DNA of 64,000 nucleotides, taken from Patescibacteria group bacterium (GTDB lineage Bacteria; Patescibacteriota; Microgenomatia; UBA8517). Location: NCBI GenBank assembly GCA_038061225.1, contig JBBTZT010000003.1, forward strand, positions 113,092-177,091, written 5' to 3'. Of the stretch, positions 1 through 20,321 are shown piece after piece; position 1 is the stretch's first letter; each line of letters starts with the position of its first letter. The translations under genes and the position numbers were made by a program. The notes below the pieces were generated by a model. That model saw only the letters and a list, made by a program, of their open reading frames with translations. It did no database searches and had not been told where the DNA came from.

Positions 1-1
1 A

Positions 2-685
2 ACTTTAGGGATTAATCCATCGACTTTTGGATATGTCGAGGATTTGGCAGGAAGAGAGGACCATCTTAATGGTGATTTAATTTTAAAATTAACTAAAATA
101 GAACACGCCGATCCTAAATTTGGAATCTATGGTATTGGTTCTTGGTTTGAGGTTATTAATAAAGAGAAGAAAAAAAGGATGGAAGGTTATTATTCTTGGG
201 GATGGGGACCAAAGTCTGGTGCAAAGCTTTTAGTTTTAGTTAAAAGAAATGGGGAAATTACACATTTGGCAACTCAAAGAGAACAAAAGTTCCCAACAGG
301 GGGGATTGAATATACTCTTGCTGGTGGATTTCCAAAATTAAATGAATCAGTTTTGGATTTTATAGTTAGATCGTTTCAAAAAGATTTAAATCTAAGTGTA
401 ACTAAAAAAGATGTAACACTTGACCAAATTATTTCACTAGGAAGACTTAATCCAGATTCAGGTATGACTAATAATAAACCTAATTTATATGCAGTAATAG
501 TTGATCTTTCAGATAATTTATATAAAGACGTTAAAAAAGGAGATAAATTTGAGGAAGATGAAGGAATGGTTTTATGGCCAATTGATAAACTATCAGACCT
601 TATCAATAAATGTGACGATGCATATTTCCTCTCAGCCTTAACCCGTCTTAGTTTGTCTTCAGATACAAATTTAAAATTAATTTAA
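2..685 (+). CDS. Nudix-fold hydrolase-like protein, 5'-partial (frame is open to the window edge; the first in-window start codon is TTG at 44)
   Basis: Degenerate Nudix box G-x5-E-x7-R (AGGFPKLNESVLDFIVRSF). Same fold signature as the downstream ORF. AT-rich like the host genome. Confidence 0.4.
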   Translation, partial: TLGINPSTFGYVEDLAGREDHLNGDLILKLTKIEHADPKFGIYGIGSWFEVINKEKKKRMEGYYSWGWGPKSGAKLLVLVKRNGEITHLATQREQKFPTGGIEYTLAGGFPKLNESVLDFIVRSFQKDLNLSVTKKDVTLDQIISLGRLNPDSGMTNNKPNLYAVIVDLSDNLYKDVKKGDKFEEDEGMVLWPIDKLSDLINKCDDAYFLSALTRLSLSSDTNLKLI

Positions 686-700
686 AATATACCCTATAAC

Positions 701-729
701 TTGACATTTAGGCATAAGTTTGATATTAT
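701..729 (+). promoter_or_regulatory. sigma70-like promoter TTGACA-17 nt-TATTAT for the G+C-rich Nudix gene; AAGGAG RBS at 817-822
   Basis: TTGACA at 701-706, 17-nt spacer, TATTAT at 724-729. A strong Shine-Dalgarno lies 6 nt before the ATG at 828. Confidence 0.45.
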
Positions 730-827
730 TCTTTCAGTTTAATTGCTCTTTTACATTCCTTCAAATGGACACCCTAATCTTAGAGGTGCCCGAACAAATA
801 TTTAATAAAATTTAAAAGGAGTACAAA

Positions 828-1496
828 ATGACTCAGAAAGTTGTACGTACCGATCAGGTAGTTTTGCCAGAAGAAAAATCTTTTGGATGGCAACCTGTAC
901 ACGGAAAAGATGGTCAAGTCGTGGCATTTGAAAACCCGCGCTTTGGCCGGTTTGAGCACATTGCCTTCGTTGATGGGGACTCTGGCGCTTTCTTGTACGA
1001 TGGAATGCGCAAACTAGATGGTCCAATCAATGAAGATGGTCATGCCAATCCTGGCGTGATTTTTGTTGTTGTGGAAGATCGTGAAGATGGTATCTATCTG
1101 CATTGTCAAGAAGAGATTCGTCCATTAATTTACGATCACATCGAAGGAGTTCAAGGAGTAAAGTGCATTGGCTTTGCAGGTGGATTTTCCCATAAGGGAG
1201 AAAAACCCAACAAAGCGGCACTTCGCGAACTTCTGAGCGAACAGGGTATTGAAGTTGAAACCGCCTCTGTTGAGCGCATTGGGTATGCATCAGATAATCG
1301 TGCCTCAACTGAAACTTGTATTGAGGTTTTCCTCGGCAAGTTTTCACGCATGATTACGCCAGTCCGAGAAGGTCATGAGATAATTCTCAAATCTGTTCTT
1401 GTACGGATTGACCAATTTATTCCTGGACTTGATGGTATCGTCAATTCTGCATATGCTATGGTGGTTTCACACCTAGGTCTAGTCAAGCAGAAGTAA
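828..1496 (+). CDS. Nudix hydrolase (ADP-ribose pyrophosphatase-like); G+C-rich, probably horizontally acquired
   Basis: Nudix box GFSHKGEKPNKAALRELLSEQGI (G-x5-E-x7-REUxEExGU with one substitution). Strong RBS. G+C visibly much higher than the flanks. Confidence 0.65.
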   Translation: MTQKVVRTDQVVLPEEKSFGWQPVHGKDGQVVAFENPRFGRFEHIAFVDGDSGAFLYDGMRKLDGPINEDGHANPGVIFVVVEDREDGIYLHCQEEIRPLIYDHIEGVQGVKCIGFAGGFSHKGEKPNKAALRELLSEQGIEVETASVERIGYASDNRASTETCIEVFLGKFSRMITPVREGHEIILKSVLVRIDQFIPGLDGIVNSAYAMVVSHLGLVKQK

Positions 1497-1515
1497 ATTT
1501 GTTCGGGCGCTTCTG

Positions 1516-1581
1516 TCCCTCACCAATCTCAGTAATAGTTTTGATGACGTTTGCGTTGTCTAAATTTGAGATGGTGAGGGA
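1516..1581 (+). terminator. Long imperfect hairpin downstream of the Nudix gene (TCCCTCACCAATCTCAG ... TGAGATGGTGAGGGA), followed by a second hairpin at about 1592-1655
   Basis: 15/16-bp inverted repeat with a loop of about 35 nt. No U-tract, so probably not a canonical intrinsic terminator. Confidence 0.3.
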
Positions 1582-1670
1582 TCATGAAGTTTTGCCAGTG
1601 CGGTATAGAAATAATTGAATTAAAAACTCAATAAAAACTATATCGCATGGCAAGAACAAATTTTATTAGA

Positions 1671-2888: not shown

Positions 2889-3419
2889 ATGGATAGCAAA
2901 GAAAATTCAGACAAGTTTACAAATTTTACAACAAGTGAGGATTATTTTGATCCTGCAATTATTTCACTTGTTTTGGAAAAGGCAAGAAAAAATGAAAGAG
3001 GTAGATTTAACTTAAGAATTCATGAAAATGACGATTCAAGACAACACCTATTAATTAATGCAATTGTAGAAAATAACTATATTAAGCCACATATGCACAG
3101 TGAAGAAAACAAAACAGAAATGTTTAGAATTTTAAAAGGTGAAGCATATCTTGTTTTTTTCAATGATTCAGAAGAAATATCAAAAATAATTAAACTTTCT
3201 GATAAAATTGATGGTAGAAAAACTGCACGTGTCAAATCAGGCCAAATGCATACAGTAGTTTGTGAAGAAGATATTGTGTTTCTGGAATCAAAAAAACAAC
3301 CAAGTGGATATAGAAAAGACGACGATAAATCTTTTGCCTCTTGGGCACCAGAAGAGAATACTGAAGAAGGTTTGATATATTTTCAAGGATTATTAGCCAA
3401 AATTAAACAATCTTATTGA
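2889..3419 (+). CDS. WbuC-family cupin-fold metalloprotein (O-antigen/rhamnose cluster associated)
   Basis: Motifs RFNLRIH...Q..L.NA......YI.PH.H and FASWAPEE typical of the WbuC family. Adjacent to RmlC and RmlD. Confidence 0.6.
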   Translation: MDSKENSDKFTNFTTSEDYFDPAIISLVLEKARKNERGRFNLRIHENDDSRQHLLINAIVENNYIKPHMHSEENKTEMFRILKGEAYLVFFNDSEEISKIIKLSDKIDGRKTARVKSGQMHTVVCEEDIVFLESKKQPSGYRKDDDKSFASWAPEENTEEGLIYFQGLLAKIKQSY

Positions 3420-3454: not shown

Positions 3455-4042
3455 ATGATGCGATTTGATCCCGAAAAAAATATTATTAAAACTTCAATCG
3501 AGGGGGTTGTTTTAATTCAAAGACCAATATTAGGAGATGCTAGGGGTTTTCTTCATGAGCCATATAATAAAGAAGAATTAAAAGTAGCAACTGGTATTGA
3601 GTTTAACCCTGTTCAGTGGACTCATGCTTATATTAAACCTGGGGTAATTAAGGCGGTTCATTCTGAAGATTGGAATAAATTAATCTACCCTATTACAGGT
3701 GTCTTGTACGCTCCAATTGTTGATCTTCGCCCTGAATCTTCTACTTTTGGAAAAGTTGAATATATAACTATTGATAATACTAAAGAAGATTCTCCGCGAC
3801 ATGCTTTATTCTTACCTAGTGGAGGTATAGGGAATTCAATTTGTACATTAGGTACTGAAATGATGCACTATTTTTATTTAATTGATAAATACTGGGATGA
3901 TGCCAAAGCCAGTGGTATTGCCTGGAATGATCCTGACCTTGCTATCAAATGGCCAATTAAAGATCCAATACTTTCTGAAAGAGACAAAACAAACAAAACG
4001 CTTCGTCAAGCGTTTCCTGAAAAATTTACATCTAAAAAATGA
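3455..4042 (+). CDS. rmlC: dTDP-4-dehydrorhamnose 3,5-epimerase family (RmlC-like cupin)
   Basis: RGFLHE, FGK, and the C-terminal WNDPDLAIKWP motif conserved in RmlC. Confidence 0.7.
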   Translation: MMRFDPEKNIIKTSIEGVVLIQRPILGDARGFLHEPYNKEELKVATGIEFNPVQWTHAYIKPGVIKAVHSEDWNKLIYPITGVLYAPIVDLRPESSTFGKVEYITIDNTKEDSPRHALFLPSGGIGNSICTLGTEMMHYFYLIDKYWDDAKASGIAWNDPDLAIKWPIKDPILSERDKTNKTLRQAFPEKFTSKK

Positions 4043-9467: not shown

Positions 9468-10098
9468 TTATTTTTCTCCACTTTTCAATTTCTCTGTGGT
9501 TGCCAGTTAATAAAATCTTTGGAACTTTTAAGCTGTTGTAATCTTCTGGGCGAGTATATTGAGGGTATTCACTATTCATATTGGAATGAGATTCTTCCGC
9601 TAGGGACTCCGGTTTAATGACATTTGGTATTAGGCGTGTTACAGCATCTGTAATTACCATCGCTGGTATTTCTCCGCCTGTTAAAACATAATCGCCGATC
9701 GAAATGATCTCATCAACAAAATTTTCATGAACTCTATGATCAATTCCTTCATAGTGACCACAAATTAAAACTAATCTCTTCAATTTGGAATAGTCGTATG
9801 CTTTTTTCTGAGTAAATTTCTCTCCGCCCGCATCAGTCATTATTATTTTTAAACCTTTTGTTTTTGGTTTAGCGTCTATCGATTTTAATGCATTATCAAT
9901 AACATCAACGCGGATTATCATTCCTGCTCCACCACCGTATGGTCTATCATCTACAGTTTTTCTTTCATCAATTCCAAATTGACGCATATCAACAATGTTT
10001 AATTTCAAAAAGTCTTTGTCTTGTGCCCGCCACATAATAGATTCATTCATGGGGCCATCAAACATCTTTGGAAACAAAGTAATAATATCAATTATCAT
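9430..10098 (-). CDS. trmD: tRNA (guanine37-N1)-methyltransferase TrmD
   Basis: Full-length match to the TrmD architecture (MIIDIITLFPKMF..., RPYGGGAGM, GHYEGIDHRV). Confidence 0.9.
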   Translation of the reverse strand: MIIDIITLFPKMFDGPMNESIMWRAQDKDFLKLNIVDMRQFGIDERKTVDDRPYGGGAGMIIRVDVIDNALKSIDAKPKTKGLKIIMTDAGGEKFTQKKAYDYSKLKRLVLICGHYEGIDHRVHENFVDEIISIGDYVLTGGEIPAMVITDAVTRLIPNVIKPESLAEESHSNMNSEYPQYTRPEDYNSLKVPKILLTGNHREIEKWRKIINRRKVKLLSRI

Positions 10099-10120
10099 AT
10101 GGATATTGTATCATTTAAGA

Positions 10121-11245
10121 ATGCAAAAGGTTGTAATTGTAATGCCTGTCTGGAATGAGGCTTCAAATCTCCGTAAAATGGTTAAACAGCTTCTTGATGT
10201 TGAGTTTCCAATTATTAATGCAGAAATGAATTTGTTGGTTGTTGATAATCACTCAACTGACGACACTGTGCAAGTTGTAGAAGAATATTCAAAAAAAGAT
10301 AAACGAGTAAAGTTAATTCAACAAAAAAATAATGGTCTTGGCTGGGCTTATGTTTCTGGATTTCAATATGCAATGAAAGAATTTAATGCAGATGCAGTTT
10401 TGGAGATGGATGGAGATTTTCAACATCCAACAAGATTTATAAAACCAATGGTAGATACATTTTTAGCTGGTGCAGATTACTGTATTGGAAGTAGATATGT
10501 TAAGGGTGGGTCTATTCCTAAAGAATGGCAATTTTCAAGACGAGCAGTTTCATATTTAGGAAATTTATTTATAAGACTTGTTTTACTTAGACCTTCATTA
10601 CATGACTTGACAACTGGCTTTAGACTCTCAAGAGTAAAAGGGGTACTAGATCAAATTGATCTCCCTAATTTAATGGAACTTAATAGATTTGCATATAAAG
10701 TAGATCTATTATATCAATCAATTAAATTATCAAAAAAGACAGTTGAAGTCCCTTTAAAATTTGCGCCTCGAACAATGGAAAAATCTAAATTTAATCCAAA
10801 AGAAATGATTGCAACTTTTAAAGTAGCAATCATTTTAGGTATTAAGGATAAGATGAAAATTATCAAGTTTGGAATAGTTGGTTTTACTGGGTTTGTAGTT
10901 AATTATATTACTCTTCGAATCTTTCGAAATCTAGGATTTACTGAAACTTTATCTTGGGCTTTTTCTACAGAACTTGCAATAATTAATAATTATATATTTA
11001 ATAACATATGGACATTTAAAGAAGATGAAATAAAAGGAATAAAACAAACTATTCTTAAATTTTTCCAATTTAATCTAACATCAGCAGGAGCTCTTTTAAT
11101 ACAGTCAATAGCAGGTCCATTCGGGGTTAAACTCGTTGGTGTTCAATATGATGCATTAGTTTTAGCTTTTGTCGTATTGTTCTTGGTTATGCCTTACAAC
11201 TTCGCCATGTATAATCTCGTTATATGGAGAAAAAAGAAGGTTTGA
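10121..11245 (+). CDS. Polyprenyl-phosphate sugar synthase (Dpm1/ArnC/GtrB-like GT2) fused to a C-terminal GtrA-family 4-TM domain
   Basis: N-terminal VIVMPVWNEASNL...VVDNHSTDDT...MDGDFQHP GT2 core. C-terminal FGIVGFTGFVVNYITLRIF...ELAIINNYIFNNIWTF is the GtrA family. The ATG at 10121 is chosen to avoid trmD overlap. Confidence 0.7.
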   Translation: MQKVVIVMPVWNEASNLRKMVKQLLDVEFPIINAEMNLLVVDNHSTDDTVQVVEEYSKKDKRVKLIQQKNNGLGWAYVSGFQYAMKEFNADAVLEMDGDFQHPTRFIKPMVDTFLAGADYCIGSRYVKGGSIPKEWQFSRRAVSYLGNLFIRLVLLRPSLHDLTTGFRLSRVKGVLDQIDLPNLMELNRFAYKVDLLYQSIKLSKKTVEVPLKFAPRTMEKSKFNPKEMIATFKVAIILGIKDKMKIIKFGIVGFTGFVVNYITLRIFRNLGFTETLSWAFSTELAIINNYIFNNIWTFKEDEIKGIKQTILKFFQFNLTSAGALLIQSIAGPFGVKLVGVQYDALVLAFVVLFLVMPYNFAMYNLVIWRKKKV

Positions 11246-18746: not shown

Positions 18747-19494
18747 TATGAATATATCTATAATCATACCATCTTTTAATGAAGAAAATAATATAAGAAC
18801 GGGATCTCTTTCAGGGATAGTTGATTATTTAAATCAACAAAAATATAGATGGGAAATAATTGTAGTAGACGATGGGTCTAGTGATAAAACTGCAGAGCTA
18901 GCTGAAAAATTTGCTAAAAACCACAAAAATGTTGTTGTTCTGAGAGAACCTCATAGAGGAAAAGGTGGAACTGTTATTGCGGGAATGCTAAAAGCTAATG
19001 GAGATGTTGTTATTTTTGACGACATGGATCAAGCAACACCGATTGATCAATTAGAAAAAATATTACCAAAATTTTCAAATGGCTACGATATAGTTATTGG
19101 TTCAAGAGTGGGTAGAGAAGGTGCACCTTTAATCAGGAAAACAATGGCCTTAGGATTTTCTATCTTACGCAATTTAGTATTGCGACTTCCATATAAAGAT
19201 ACACAGTGTGGATTTAAAGCTTTTAAAAAGAAAGCATCTAATGAAATATTTAAACGTTTACAGATTTTTAATCAACAACAAGCACAATCTGGAGCTTCAG
19301 TTTCAGCAGGATTTGATCTTGAAATATTATATGTTGCCAGAAAATTAAAATTAAAGGTGGCGGAAGTTCCTGTCGTTTGGCATCACAAAGAAGGAACTAA
19401 AGTTAATCCAATTAAAGATAGTTGGGAAGGTCTAAGAGATCTAATGAAAGTAAGACTAAATGCTATTCAAGGAAAATATAATTTAAGGAGATGA
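18730..19494 (+). CDS. GT2 polyprenyl-phosphate glycosyltransferase (Dpm1/GtrB-like)
   Basis: ISIIIPSFNEENNI...VVDDGSSDKT...FDDMDQATP...GFKAF. Confidence 0.7.
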   Translation: MDTLNNMNISIIIPSFNEENNIRTGSLSGIVDYLNQQKYRWEIIVVDDGSSDKTAELAEKFAKNHKNVVVLREPHRGKGGTVIAGMLKANGDVVIFDDMDQATPIDQLEKILPKFSNGYDIVIGSRVGREGAPLIRKTMALGFSILRNLVLRLPYKDTQCGFKAFKKKASNEIFKRLQIFNQQQAQSGASVSAGFDLEILYVARKLKLKVAEVPVVWHHKEGTKVNPIKDSWEGLRDLMKVRLNAIQGKYNLRR

Positions 19495-20321
19495 AAACTA
19501 AATCTTCAAAAATAGTTTTGTTCAAAGATCAAAAAATTAGACGTGATTGGAATAAAAAAGAACAAAAATGGTATTTTTCTGTTATTGATATCGTAGGAGT
19601 TTTAAGCAAAAGTACCAGCACTCAGGCATATTGGCGCAAGTTGAAGGAAAGGTTAAAAGCTGAAGGTAGCGAAACCGTGACAAAATGTCACGGTTTGAAA
19701 ATGAAAGCGATTGACGGAAAAATGAGGTTAACAGACGTGGCAGATACTGAAACAATGCTTAGATTAATCCAATCAATACCATCACCTAACGCTGAGCCTT
19801 TTAAATTATGGCTTGCGAGAGTTGGTTATGAAAGAATTGAAGAAACTGAAGATCCAGAAAAAGGAATTCAACGAGCATTGTCTACATATCTTAAAAAAGG
19901 ATATTCCAAATCATGGGTTGATCTAAGGCTTAAAAGTATAGAAATTAGAAAAGATTTAACTAATGAGTGGGATGAAAGAGGTGTTAGTAACTCAAAAGAA
20001 TATGCAATATTAACTGACGATATTACCTTTGCATGGGCGGGACTTCGAACAAAAGATTACAAAGATTATAAAAATTTAAAAAAAGAAAATTTGCGGGACA
20101 ATATGACTAATTTGGAGTTAGTTTTAAATATGTTAGCAGAGACAGCAACTACAGAAATTTCAAAAACTAAAAAACCTGATACTTTTTATAAAAATAGAAT
20201 TGTTGCCAAAGAAGGAGGGGATATTGCGGGAAGAGCAAGAAAACAAATTGAAGTCAAAAGCGGTAGAAAAGTGGTCAGTAAATATCGTTTTGGCGAAAAA
20301 AGAGATAAACTATTAAAATGA
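19491..20321 (+). CDS. Bro-N domain protein (phage antirepressor / DinD-like)
   Basis: N-terminal Bro-N signature (F....iR.....WYFSVIDIVGVL...ESGLY-type, LIQSIPSPNAEPFKLWLARV). ATGA coupling on both sides. Confidence 0.55.
   Translation: MKTKSSKIVLFKDQKIRRDWNKKEQKWYFSVIDIVGVLSKSTSTQAYWRKLKERLKAEGSETVTKCHGLKMKAIDGKMRLTDVADTETMLRLIQSIPSPNAEPFKLWLARVGYERIEETEDPEKGIQRALSTYLKKGYSKSWVDLRLKSIEIRKDLTNEWDERGVSNSKEYAILTDDITFAWAGLRTKDYKDYKNLKKENLRDNMTNLELVLNMLAETATTEISKTKKPDTFYKNRIVAKEGGDIAGRARKQIEVKSGRKVVSKYRFGEKRDKLLK

Follow-up and report, generated by a model that had tools for sequence, protein, structure and literature searches.

Pairing between the two untranslated regions (UTRs), 5' and 3', of a single bacterial mRNA is a known class of RNA interaction, of which only a few cases have been dissected. 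In an arrangement of similar bracket geometry, the 5' and 3' flanks of the 16S and 23S rRNAs pair with each other to form processing stems that are cut by RNase III. Among mRNAs, the icaR transcript of Staphylococcus aureus carries in its 3'UTR the motif UCCCCUG, which pairs with the Shine-Dalgarno (SD) region, blocks initiation and creates a substrate for RNase III (PMC3868564). In the hbs mRNA of Bacillus subtilis, a 14-bp helix between the two UTRs lies outside the SD sequence, modulates the access of ribonucleases and links the stability of the message to its translation; this interaction overlaps a mapped RNase Y site (PMC5737220). Here we describe an inverted repeat that brackets a G+C-rich gene for a divergent Nudix-fold protein in a Patescibacteria group bacterium (assembly GCA_038061225.1, contig JBBTZT010000003.1, positions 113,092 to 177,091). 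The whole 64,000-nt stretch is called the window in what follows, and its copy of the locus is called W where loci are compared. The repeat is very probably a functional RNA feature, namely a helix between leader and trailer that would close the mRNA around its entire open reading frame (ORF).

Like icaR, the locus is predicted to give a monocistronic mRNA in which a segment of the 3'UTR pairs with its own 5'UTR, and post-transcriptional control is proposed here as well. Unlike in icaR, the 5' arm of the helix ends 17–60 nt before the AUG across the related loci and never includes the SD (at 816–821 in the window, outside the helix), the 3' arm lies at the stop codon, and the helix is conserved with covariation across a protein family; there is no sequence relationship between the two systems. 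With hbs the locus shares a long-range UTR–UTR helix outside the SD, from which it differs in that the helix reaches up to 19–20 bp, lies against the stop codon and joins two more conserved hairpins in a junction; the two are not homologous. As in the rRNA processing stems, the helix between the flanks encloses a whole functional segment, but the enclosed segment is here a translated ORF. The locus is set apart from the known cases by the enclosure of the whole ORF, the position of the helix directly at the stop, the free SD, the multi-hairpin junction and the exchangeable frame in which the unit sits. To our knowledge, none of the few dissected cases of UTR pairing (icaR and hbs) has family-wide covariation support. 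In the present case the comparative data by themselves reveal an ORF-enclosing helix that is kept with its gene across deep divergence and different gene contexts, and it may serve as a model for the coupling of translation and mRNA lifetime in candidate-phyla bacteria; the organisms concerned are not culturable.

The original prediction, made from the letters of the window, described a perfect 12-bp inverted repeat at 788–799 and 1496–1507, the second copy overlapping the stop codon. The complementarity itself is exact, with GCCCGAACAAAT at 788–799 and its reverse complement ATTTGTTCGGGC at 1497–1508; the position of the second copy had to be corrected, because the TAA stop occupies 1494–1496 and the 3' arm begins on the next base, so that it abuts the stop rather than overlapping it. 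The arms and the gene that they enclose are the following:

782–799, + strand: 5' arm of the bracketing helix, with its perfect core at 788–799, ending 28 nt before the AUG and not covering the SD
828–1496, + strand: coding sequence (CDS) of the 222-aa divergent Nudix-fold protein, recognised by Pfam PF00293 and a structure model
1497–1514, + strand: 3' arm of the bracketing helix, with its perfect core at 1497–1508, starting on the first base after the stop codon

Over the 18 nt to which the repeat can be extended, 16 positions are Watson-Crick complementary and the other two are G.U-compatible on the + strand, with one further G.U pair giving a 19-bp helix. The 12-mer, with up to one mismatch allowed, occurs in the 64 kb as the two arms only (expected number 0.18), and two or more copies were seen in none of 100 shuffles, which shows that it is not common background in this stretch. 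For pairing of the 5'UTR with the 67 nt that follow the stop, the 12-bp Watson-Crick core was reached in 3 of 2000 dinucleotide shuffles, and the 19-bp helix with its G.U pairs in none of 2000. When the full predicted transcript (736–1670, 935 nt) is folded as RNA, the leader–trailer helix is present both in the minimum free energy (MFE) structure and in the centroid; the energy of −316 kcal/mol compares with −247 ± 9.6 kcal/mol for shuffles (z = −7.1), and the excess roughly equals the contribution of the bracketing helix and of the two hairpins that follow it.

The protein family, for which 36 and then 43 clusters were collected among 5.8 billion proteins, is made up entirely of members from metagenomes or from metagenome-assembled genomes (MAGs) of Patescibacteria/Microgenomates, and 16 distinct homologous loci were retrieved for comparison. 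A helix between the 5' and 3' flanks brackets the gene in 15 of these 16 loci, including loci whose proteins share 43–54% identity and whose gene neighbourhoods differ. A closely similar promoter, with its spacer and ~12 nt upstream of the −35 element, is likewise found in 15/16, as are one or two hairpins after the stop-proximal 3' arm. The unit occurs in at least two gene contexts, among them beside rho and in dTDP-rhamnose clusters, where it stands before or after an MFS (major facilitator superfamily) gene. In 14/16 loci the 3' arm overlaps the stop codon or starts no more than 6 nt from it. L028 keeps the arm at the stop despite a C-terminal extension of the protein, and in L027, also C-terminally extended, the arm lies at +13 to +24.

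The arms themselves differ in sequence among the loci. Those of the window type are AGAGGTGCCCGAACAAAT / ATTTGTTCGGGCGCTTCT, those of L011, L029 and L030 are GCCCAAAC / GTTTGGGC, L019 has the variant GAATAA / TTATTC, and six loci referred to as type B have ACCTTGAACAAA / TTTGTTCAAGGT; differences between loci are seen as GCCCGAAC/GTTCGGGC, GCCCAAAC/GTTTGGGC and CCTTGAAC/GTTCAAGG. In L028 the arms are TGGCACCTT / AAGGTGCCA, overlapping the stop codon, and in L027 GGGCACCT..CGGACT pairs with AGTCCG..AGGTGCCC through a 3x3 internal loop, with both arms shifted. The helix measures 18–20 bp in type-A loci and 11–12 bp in type-B loci, and the arms go down to 9–12 bp in some loci.

Covariation was evaluated on a curated, ungapped arm alignment of 14 loci and 18 pairs. 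Standard pairs are formed by 86.5% of the cells, as compared with 32–51% when the partner is slid by 1–3 columns, and both sides have changed in 10 of the 18 pairs. The covariation score is 0.403 against 0.223 for shuffles, none of 500 of which reached it. The cells that depart from Watson-Crick pairing are 25 of the G.U type on the sense strand against 2 of the A.C type; since a DNA repeat maintained by a recombinase or by gene conversion should give equal numbers of both, this 25:2 bias argues for a helix in the sense-strand RNA. RNAalifold, applied to leader+trailer chimeras of seven type-A loci, returns the bracketing helix and both hairpins, with compensatory changes in 17 of 51 pairs. 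Hairpin 1, found in the seven type-A loci W, L014, L019, L020, L029, L030 and L031, has compensatory changes in several of its pairs, and the single 3' hairpin of L011 is, by eye, nearer to the type-B or hairpin-2 form. An all-against-all comparison of leaders and trailers with RNAduplex in 100-nt windows was too noisy to show specificity. The covariation is good evidence, not proof, of pairing; together with the consensus structure and the fold of the transcript it points to what the original prediction had named as its alternative, that the 5' and 3' UTRs would pair in the transcript.

The interval 688–1663 reads as one self-contained monocistronic unit, predicted to consist of a strong sigma-70-type promoter, a 92-nt leader, the Nudix gene and a structured 170-nt trailer. 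It is taken as monocistronic because it has its own promoter and SD and because a separate −10-like element precedes the MFS gene downstream. Its remaining elements are:

688–734, + strand: promoter frame TATACCCTATAAC, with the −35 element TTGACA at 701–706, a 17-nt spacer and the extended −10 element TG-n-TATTAT at 724–729
736–827 (~92 nt), + strand: 5'UTR, with the GCTCTTTTACA box at 745–755, a local hairpin option CACCCTAA/TTAGAGGTG at 770–788 and the SD AAGGAG at 816–821
1509–1590, + strand: hairpin 1, with perfect 10-nt core arms at 1516–1525/1572–1581
1592–1653, + strand: hairpin 2, TTGCCAGTGCGGTATAG ... CTATATCGCATGGCAA, its basal sequence kept across loci and common to locus L050 (described below) despite the other cargo there
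1654–1663, + strand: GAACAAATTT box, a direct copy, with one mismatch, of part of the 5' arm (792–801)

The predicted promoter (701–729) has 11 of 12 consensus matches together with the TG and is unique in the window; the sequence of its frame opens with ACCCTATARCTTGACWTTTAG, and transcription is predicted to start at ~735–737. The GCTCTTTTACA box and other boxes of the leader are conserved among the related loci. Pairing of the conserved GCUCUUUUA box (745–755) with the SD has weak energies, which are not consistently above those of shuffles. At the other end of the unit, a −10-like TACAAT (1676–1681) lies 6 nt ahead of the ATG of the MFS gene (1688), the mRNA of which may be leaderless.

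Two long hairpins after the gene had been predicted, and both are confirmed within the coordinates given above. The stretch 1490–1670 folds into them with an energy of −70.3 kcal/mol, where shuffles give −34.6 ± 4.0 (z = −9.0), and the same trailer reaches −60.3 on the minus strand as compared with −70.3 on the plus strand. A scan for a canonical intrinsic terminator, in the form of a G+C-rich hairpin with a direct U-tract, found none at hairpin 1 or hairpin 2; hairpin 2 is followed in the window by GAACAAAUUUUAUU, and the other loci have no conserved U-tract at this place. The covariance models of Rfam 15 gave no match at the gathering score in the whole window, and on 680–1720, searched up to E 10, they gave only noise (E >= 2) and no riboswitch or leader family. 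A search for tRNA and transfer-messenger RNA (tmRNA) found none.

At its centre the structure has a junction that can adopt two states. The outer 6–7 bp of the bracket (AGAGGUG with CGCUUCU) can be replaced by two local helices, one in the leader at 770–788 (CACCCUAA with UUAGAGGUG) and the other at the base of hairpin 1 (CUUCUG with CAUGAAG). The basal extension of hairpin 1, GCTTCTG/CATGAAGT, shares sequence with the outer portion of the 3' arm, with which it competes. The GAACAAATTT box can pair locally with 1495–1504, which closes a three-way junction in place of the long-range helix; it is kept as GGCAAGAACAAA in W, L029, L030 and L050, the last of which has no local partner for it.

The gene had also been described as compositionally foreign, and empty sites, with the MFS gene directly behind the upstream gene, were looked for in relatives. 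The upstream gene, a dTDP-glucose 4,6-dehydratase fusion, has relatives at 92, 90, 89, 88% identity and so on, while none of the clusters of the Nudix family falls between 78% and 100% identity to the window protein, which argues that close relatives lack the Nudix gene. An empty site in the strict sense was not found in the relatives; the Nudix gene is nevertheless absent from a sister genome (L050, upstream gene 92% identical), in which the slot between the dehydratase fusion and the MFS gene has an alternative occupant, a 449-aa ORF, together with a minus-strand nucleotidyltransferase gene. The unit of this genome is placed as follows:

7912–9665 of L050, same slot as window 688–1663: unit with the same promoter and hairpin 2 and with other cargo

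The 449-aa ORF (L050:8123–9472) has a G+C content of 0.436 against 0.336 for its genome and no match in Pfam, NCBIfam, PDB, PADLOC or PHROG. The similarity between the window and L050 runs through the promoter, which is nearly identical in the two, and ends at ~734, about the predicted transcription start; it resumes at hairpin 2 and the GAACAAA box (1591–1662, 78%) and again at the MFS gene. Both repeat arms (782–799 and 1497–1514) are inside the part that varies between the two genomes, not at its edges. The predicted promoter and hairpin 2 are thus a persistent frame while the cargo differs between sister genomes, and a compositionally foreign, exchangeable gene, as originally proposed, is supported by this other G+C-rich ORF in the same frame and by the several gene contexts of the unit. 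The L050 cargo has a perfect 11-bp complement of its own, between nucleotides 5–15 of the predicted transcript and 14–24 nt after the stop, which is present in the full-length MFE structure, is followed by a hairpin-1-like stem and was reached in 3 of 2000 shuffles by an exact-helix test, used in place of RNAduplex with long windows, where the L050 pairing was not significant. Coming from a single sequence, this second bracket is suggestive only. If the second cargo is typical, the frame would offer a modular way to express and exchange accessory genes. The broader proposal of a Microgenomates class of exchangeable single-gene cassettes, in which a conserved promoter/terminal-hairpin frame holds unrelated G+C-rich cargo, each with its own 5'UTR–3'UTR helix, is a rather unlikely one at present; if true, such a class would imply a dedicated mechanism of RNA-level expression, processing or exchange undescribed in bacteria, and its frame would double as homology arms for the swapping of cargo.

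The nucleotidyltransferase gene of L050 lies between hairpin 2 and the MFS gene (9789–10160, minus strand). It encodes a 123-aa Polbeta-type protein (PF18765, E = 2e-14) that matches the PADLOC candidate system PDC-S09, and its absence from the window is a further sign of a variable slot.

We consider it probable, on balance, that the locus is an accessory monocistronic unit whose mRNA is closed by the 5'UTR–3'UTR helix, acting as a cis-acting post-transcriptional control element. The unit would be accessory DNA, probably from a G+C-richer relative, placed in the slot between the RmlB-fusion gene and the MFS gene. In its mRNA, 782–799 of the leader would pair with the first 18 nt after the stop (1497–1514), the entire coding region would form a loop, and the leader hairpin option (770–788), hairpin 1 and hairpin 2 would meet at one multi-helix junction. 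The comparison of loci shows this helix to be selected as RNA and to accompany the gene into different genomic contexts, with the SD left free and the 3' arm at the stop codon. A ribosome covers roughly a dozen nucleotides beyond the stop codon, so that each terminating ribosome would melt the helix and the closed form would be found mainly on untranslated mRNA. In the version that we prefer, which resembles hbs, closure of the junction would keep endo- and exoribonucleases away from the leader and from the part of the trailer next to the stop, and would in this way tie the lifetime of the mRNA to its translation. Any single version of the mechanism is advanced tentatively and falls clearly short of being probable.

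A number of points weigh against this reading. The covariation comes from few independent events, as one switch from type A to type B accounts for 4–5 positions, and the sequences are related. The single-sequence MFE structure of the full transcript holds the helix in 9/16 loci and lacks it in 7/16, which the competition between the two states of the junction may explain. In type-B loci an inserted leader hairpin competes for five of the base pairs of the helix, and the helix, at 11–12 bp, is short for RNase III. L016 is without the promoter and the 5' arm, yet its gene is intact. In this locus (L016:870–1068) an unrelated sequence with two GGTTAAAGACC-centred palindromes lies upstream, and the 3' arm and the hairpin are intact, which suggests a recent rearrangement. 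The primary sequence, moreover, is conserved beyond what pairing demands (the GGYGCC:GGCRCC helix, the base of hairpin 2 and the promoter spacer), and such conservation across hosts with 43–54% protein identity hints at a protein or ligand partner. Finally, the promoter, the ends of the transcript and the co-transcription of both arms are predictions, and the effect of the helix may be either stabilising or destabilising.

At the level of RNA, the preferred hbs-like protection has to be set against other roles of the same helix. The 5'/3' duplex, stacked coaxially on the hairpins, could be a processing or decay site of the RNase III type, cut by a double-strand-specific RNase that would destroy untranslated mRNA or trim the leader and trailer. 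The 18–20 bp of the type-A helix and the GGYGCC:GGCRCC conservation, which would fit a defined cleavage site, are in keeping with this, as is the geometry of the bracket, which is like that of the rRNA processing stems and of the icaR duplex (PMC3868564); the helix of only 11–12 bp in type-B loci and the position of the SD outside the duplex, unlike in icaR, speak against it. Such a processing site is possible but doubtful, and as an icaR-like RNase substrate it is nearly as likely as the hbs-like version. The two states of the junction could, alternatively, be selected by a ligand or a binding protein, possibly the Nudix protein or its substrate. Every type-A locus allows both alternative pairings to be drawn, in L029 both strands at the foot of hairpin 1 appear by eye to have changed (CUCUAA/UUAGA), type-B loci have an analogous competition of ACCUU with GAGGU or AAGGU, and a factor of this sort would account for sequence conservation beyond the needs of pairing. 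Against such a sensor stand the nearly invariant columns of the leader hairpin, which provide no covariation evidence, the lack of any Rfam riboswitch or leader match up to E 10, and the fact that no conserved internal loop resembling a ligand pocket was identified, so that we regard it as improbable. It is very unlikely that the complementarity is a non-functional relic, left for example when an ORF inserted into the loop of a pre-existing hairpin, and kept by chance or linkage. The intact gene of L016 without its 5' arm and the seven MFE structures without the helix would be compatible with a by-product of this kind, but the helix has been kept with two-sided changes across 43–54% identity while the intervening UTR diverged, and a second, unrelated cargo, that of L050, is also bracketed.

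At the level of DNA, the original prediction took the inverted repeats for the termini or recombination sites of a small mobile element, of the miniature inverted-repeat transposable element (MITE) or integron-cassette type. The gene is indeed compositionally distinct, patchy and found in different contexts, with other cargo in the slot of a sister genome, and the layout of GAACAAAT, repeated directly at 792–799 and 1654–1661 and inversely at 1497–1504, is superficially like that of integron core sites. This explanation has become extremely unlikely, as the unit is single-copy: no further copies of the 12-mer or the hairpins exist in the window, blastn of the leader, trailer and CDS against it returns only short A+T-rich noise, and in ~380 kb of related DNA each locus has a single copy of the promoter and hairpin motifs. 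Neither the called genes of ~16 neighbourhoods nor the first 25 kb of the window include an integrase, transposase, recombinase or invertase, and no target-site duplication was seen flanking the unit. The unit has its own predicted promoter, the transcription start and hairpin 2, rather than the repeat, mark the limits of the variable DNA, the leader of L050 is without the GAACAAA copy, and the 25:2 G.U bias is unexpected for DNA sites. Nor was any relative seen that carries the gene without the repeats and with native G+C. Equally remote is an inverton, in which the repeats would flank an invertible ribosome-binding site and gene, with the promoter outside, and a recombinase would flip the gene off and on. 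The geometry fits, since the promoter (701–729) is outside the repeats and the ribosome-binding site and gene are inside, and a concerted change of both arms would mimic covariation. The G.U bias is again at odds with it, however, as are the absence of a recombinase nearby, the arms of only 9–12 bp in some loci and the RNA-like pairing of L027 through a 3x3 internal loop with shifted arms; the unit is also identical and in the same orientation in all 10 population contigs listed of 22, where assemblies would hide minority orientations. For the scanning of genomes, the case advises caution, in that inverted repeats on either side of a gene of odd composition are not necessarily the ends of a transposon.

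An integron attC site begins with R'' (RYYYAAC) and ends with R' (GTTRRRY), forms one imperfect hairpin with extrahelical bases and belongs to cassettes that are usually promoterless. The locus shares with an integron cassette a compact single-gene unit with an imperfect-palindrome structure, and a short sequence before the gene that is repeated after the structure and inverted after the stop; it differs in having no integrase or array, in its own promoter, in the order and sequence of the core sites and in a repeat that behaves as RNA. The assignment to attC was rejected: after the stop the order is GTTC(GGGC)...GAAC(AAAT), that is GTT...AAC on either strand and the opposite of AAC...GTT, GCCCGAAC/GTTCGGGC fall outside RYYYAAC/GTTRRRY, two hairpins extend over ~160 nt, and there is one unit per locus and no cassette array. 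Domains IV–VI of a group II intron, considered by eye, were rejected as well, with the promoter ~90 nt upstream leaving no room for domains I–III and hairpin 2 being unlike domain V. Phage 'morons' are autonomous accessory transcription units. The locus resembles them in that a single gene, equipped with a promoter and 3' hairpins of its own, stands between resident genes on both sides as an insert and deviates from them in base composition, but it is not part of a recognisable prophage, its frame is conserved while its cargo differs, and it has the additional gene-bracketing UTR helix. In viral contigs, the 15-mer TTAGAGGTGCCCGAA gave 17 matches, all in unrelated coding sequence by inspection, and scans with the hairpin-2 and promoter patterns gave none.

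The identification of the gene as a Nudix gene, made in the original prediction, holds by sequence profile and by fold. PF00293 scores 23.5 bits against a cut-off of 21.1. The AlphaFold model (mean predicted local distance difference test, pLDDT, 77.6) shows a Nudix fold and, at the N-terminus, a beta domain, and it most resembles NudC, pyrophosphatases of ADP-ribose or ADP-sugars and regulators of the Nudix type (E 1e-6 to 1e-4, with TM-scores of only 0.35–0.44). The Nudix box GX5EX7REUXEEXGU is near-canonical in the window protein (G119, E125, R133, E134, S137 in place of E, E138, G140 and I141). Since only E134, E138 and G140 are invariant across the family, catalytic activity as a Nudix hydrolase is putative. 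The gene recurs beside dTDP-rhamnose genes, an MFS transporter and DUF6016, and these neighbours suggest a substrate related to nucleotide sugars. PADLOC, PHROGs and NCBIfam gave no defence-system or phage assignment for the protein.

The composition of the gene is as deviant as had been claimed, with a G+C content of 0.444 compared with 0.30 on average for the window, which has no other G+C-rich island in its 64 kb. At first codon positions (GC1) the value is 0.64 against a window mean of 0.39 (z = 7.4), many codons having an initial G, and at third positions (GC3) it is 0.345, higher than in any other ORF of the window (mean 0.206, z = 4.5). The excess is partly protein-driven (GC1) and partly synonymous (GC3). 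In every host in which neighbours were measured, the GC3 of the gene exceeds theirs, and the gap is large in the A+T-rich L027–L030. Taken with its scattered distribution, the variety of its gene contexts and the other occupant of the slot, this composition makes it probable that the gene was acquired horizontally from G+C-richer relatives, with partial amelioration; selection on synonymous sites may be another source of the high GC3.

The upstream gene (window 1–685; full gene L001:1954–3858) encodes a 634-aa dTDP-glucose 4,6-dehydratase fusion, of which the window holds the C-terminal 213 aa. Its description as a second Nudix gene was not confirmed, as this C-terminal part has no Pfam NUDIX hit. 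A paralogy between it and the Nudix protein was examined and is not supported (E = 0.057, with neither a Pfam NUDIX nor a PDB sequence match for the C-terminal domain). The dehydratase fusion is widespread in Woesebacteria/Microgenomates. Downstream, the MFS gene extends over 1688–2875. An apparent loss of the MFS gene in L002 (5271 onward) is explained by a scaffold gap, filled with N, and not by a deletion.

A DUF6016/cupin-like gene is found adjacent to the Nudix gene or near it in two contexts that otherwise differ (window 2889–3419, and L028:3421–4914 as a 497-aa fusion), which hints at a functional link between the two genes. It is followed in the window, at 3455–25011, by a rhamnose/glycan-biosynthesis locus with RmlC, RmlD, at least seven family-2 glycosyltransferases, four PMT_2-type glycosyltransferases, a flippase and a DHH phosphoesterase, amid which lies, at 19491–20318, the gene for a Bro-N domain protein, of a kind usually seen in phages. 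In L016, L019, L020, L022, L025, L026 and L031, the sequence (A)ACTTCGAGTTTGCCCGA is present 100–200 nt downstream of the Nudix trailer; it follows a TTGACA...TATACT promoter and precedes rho in many loci, and is a candidate for a conserved leader element of rho.

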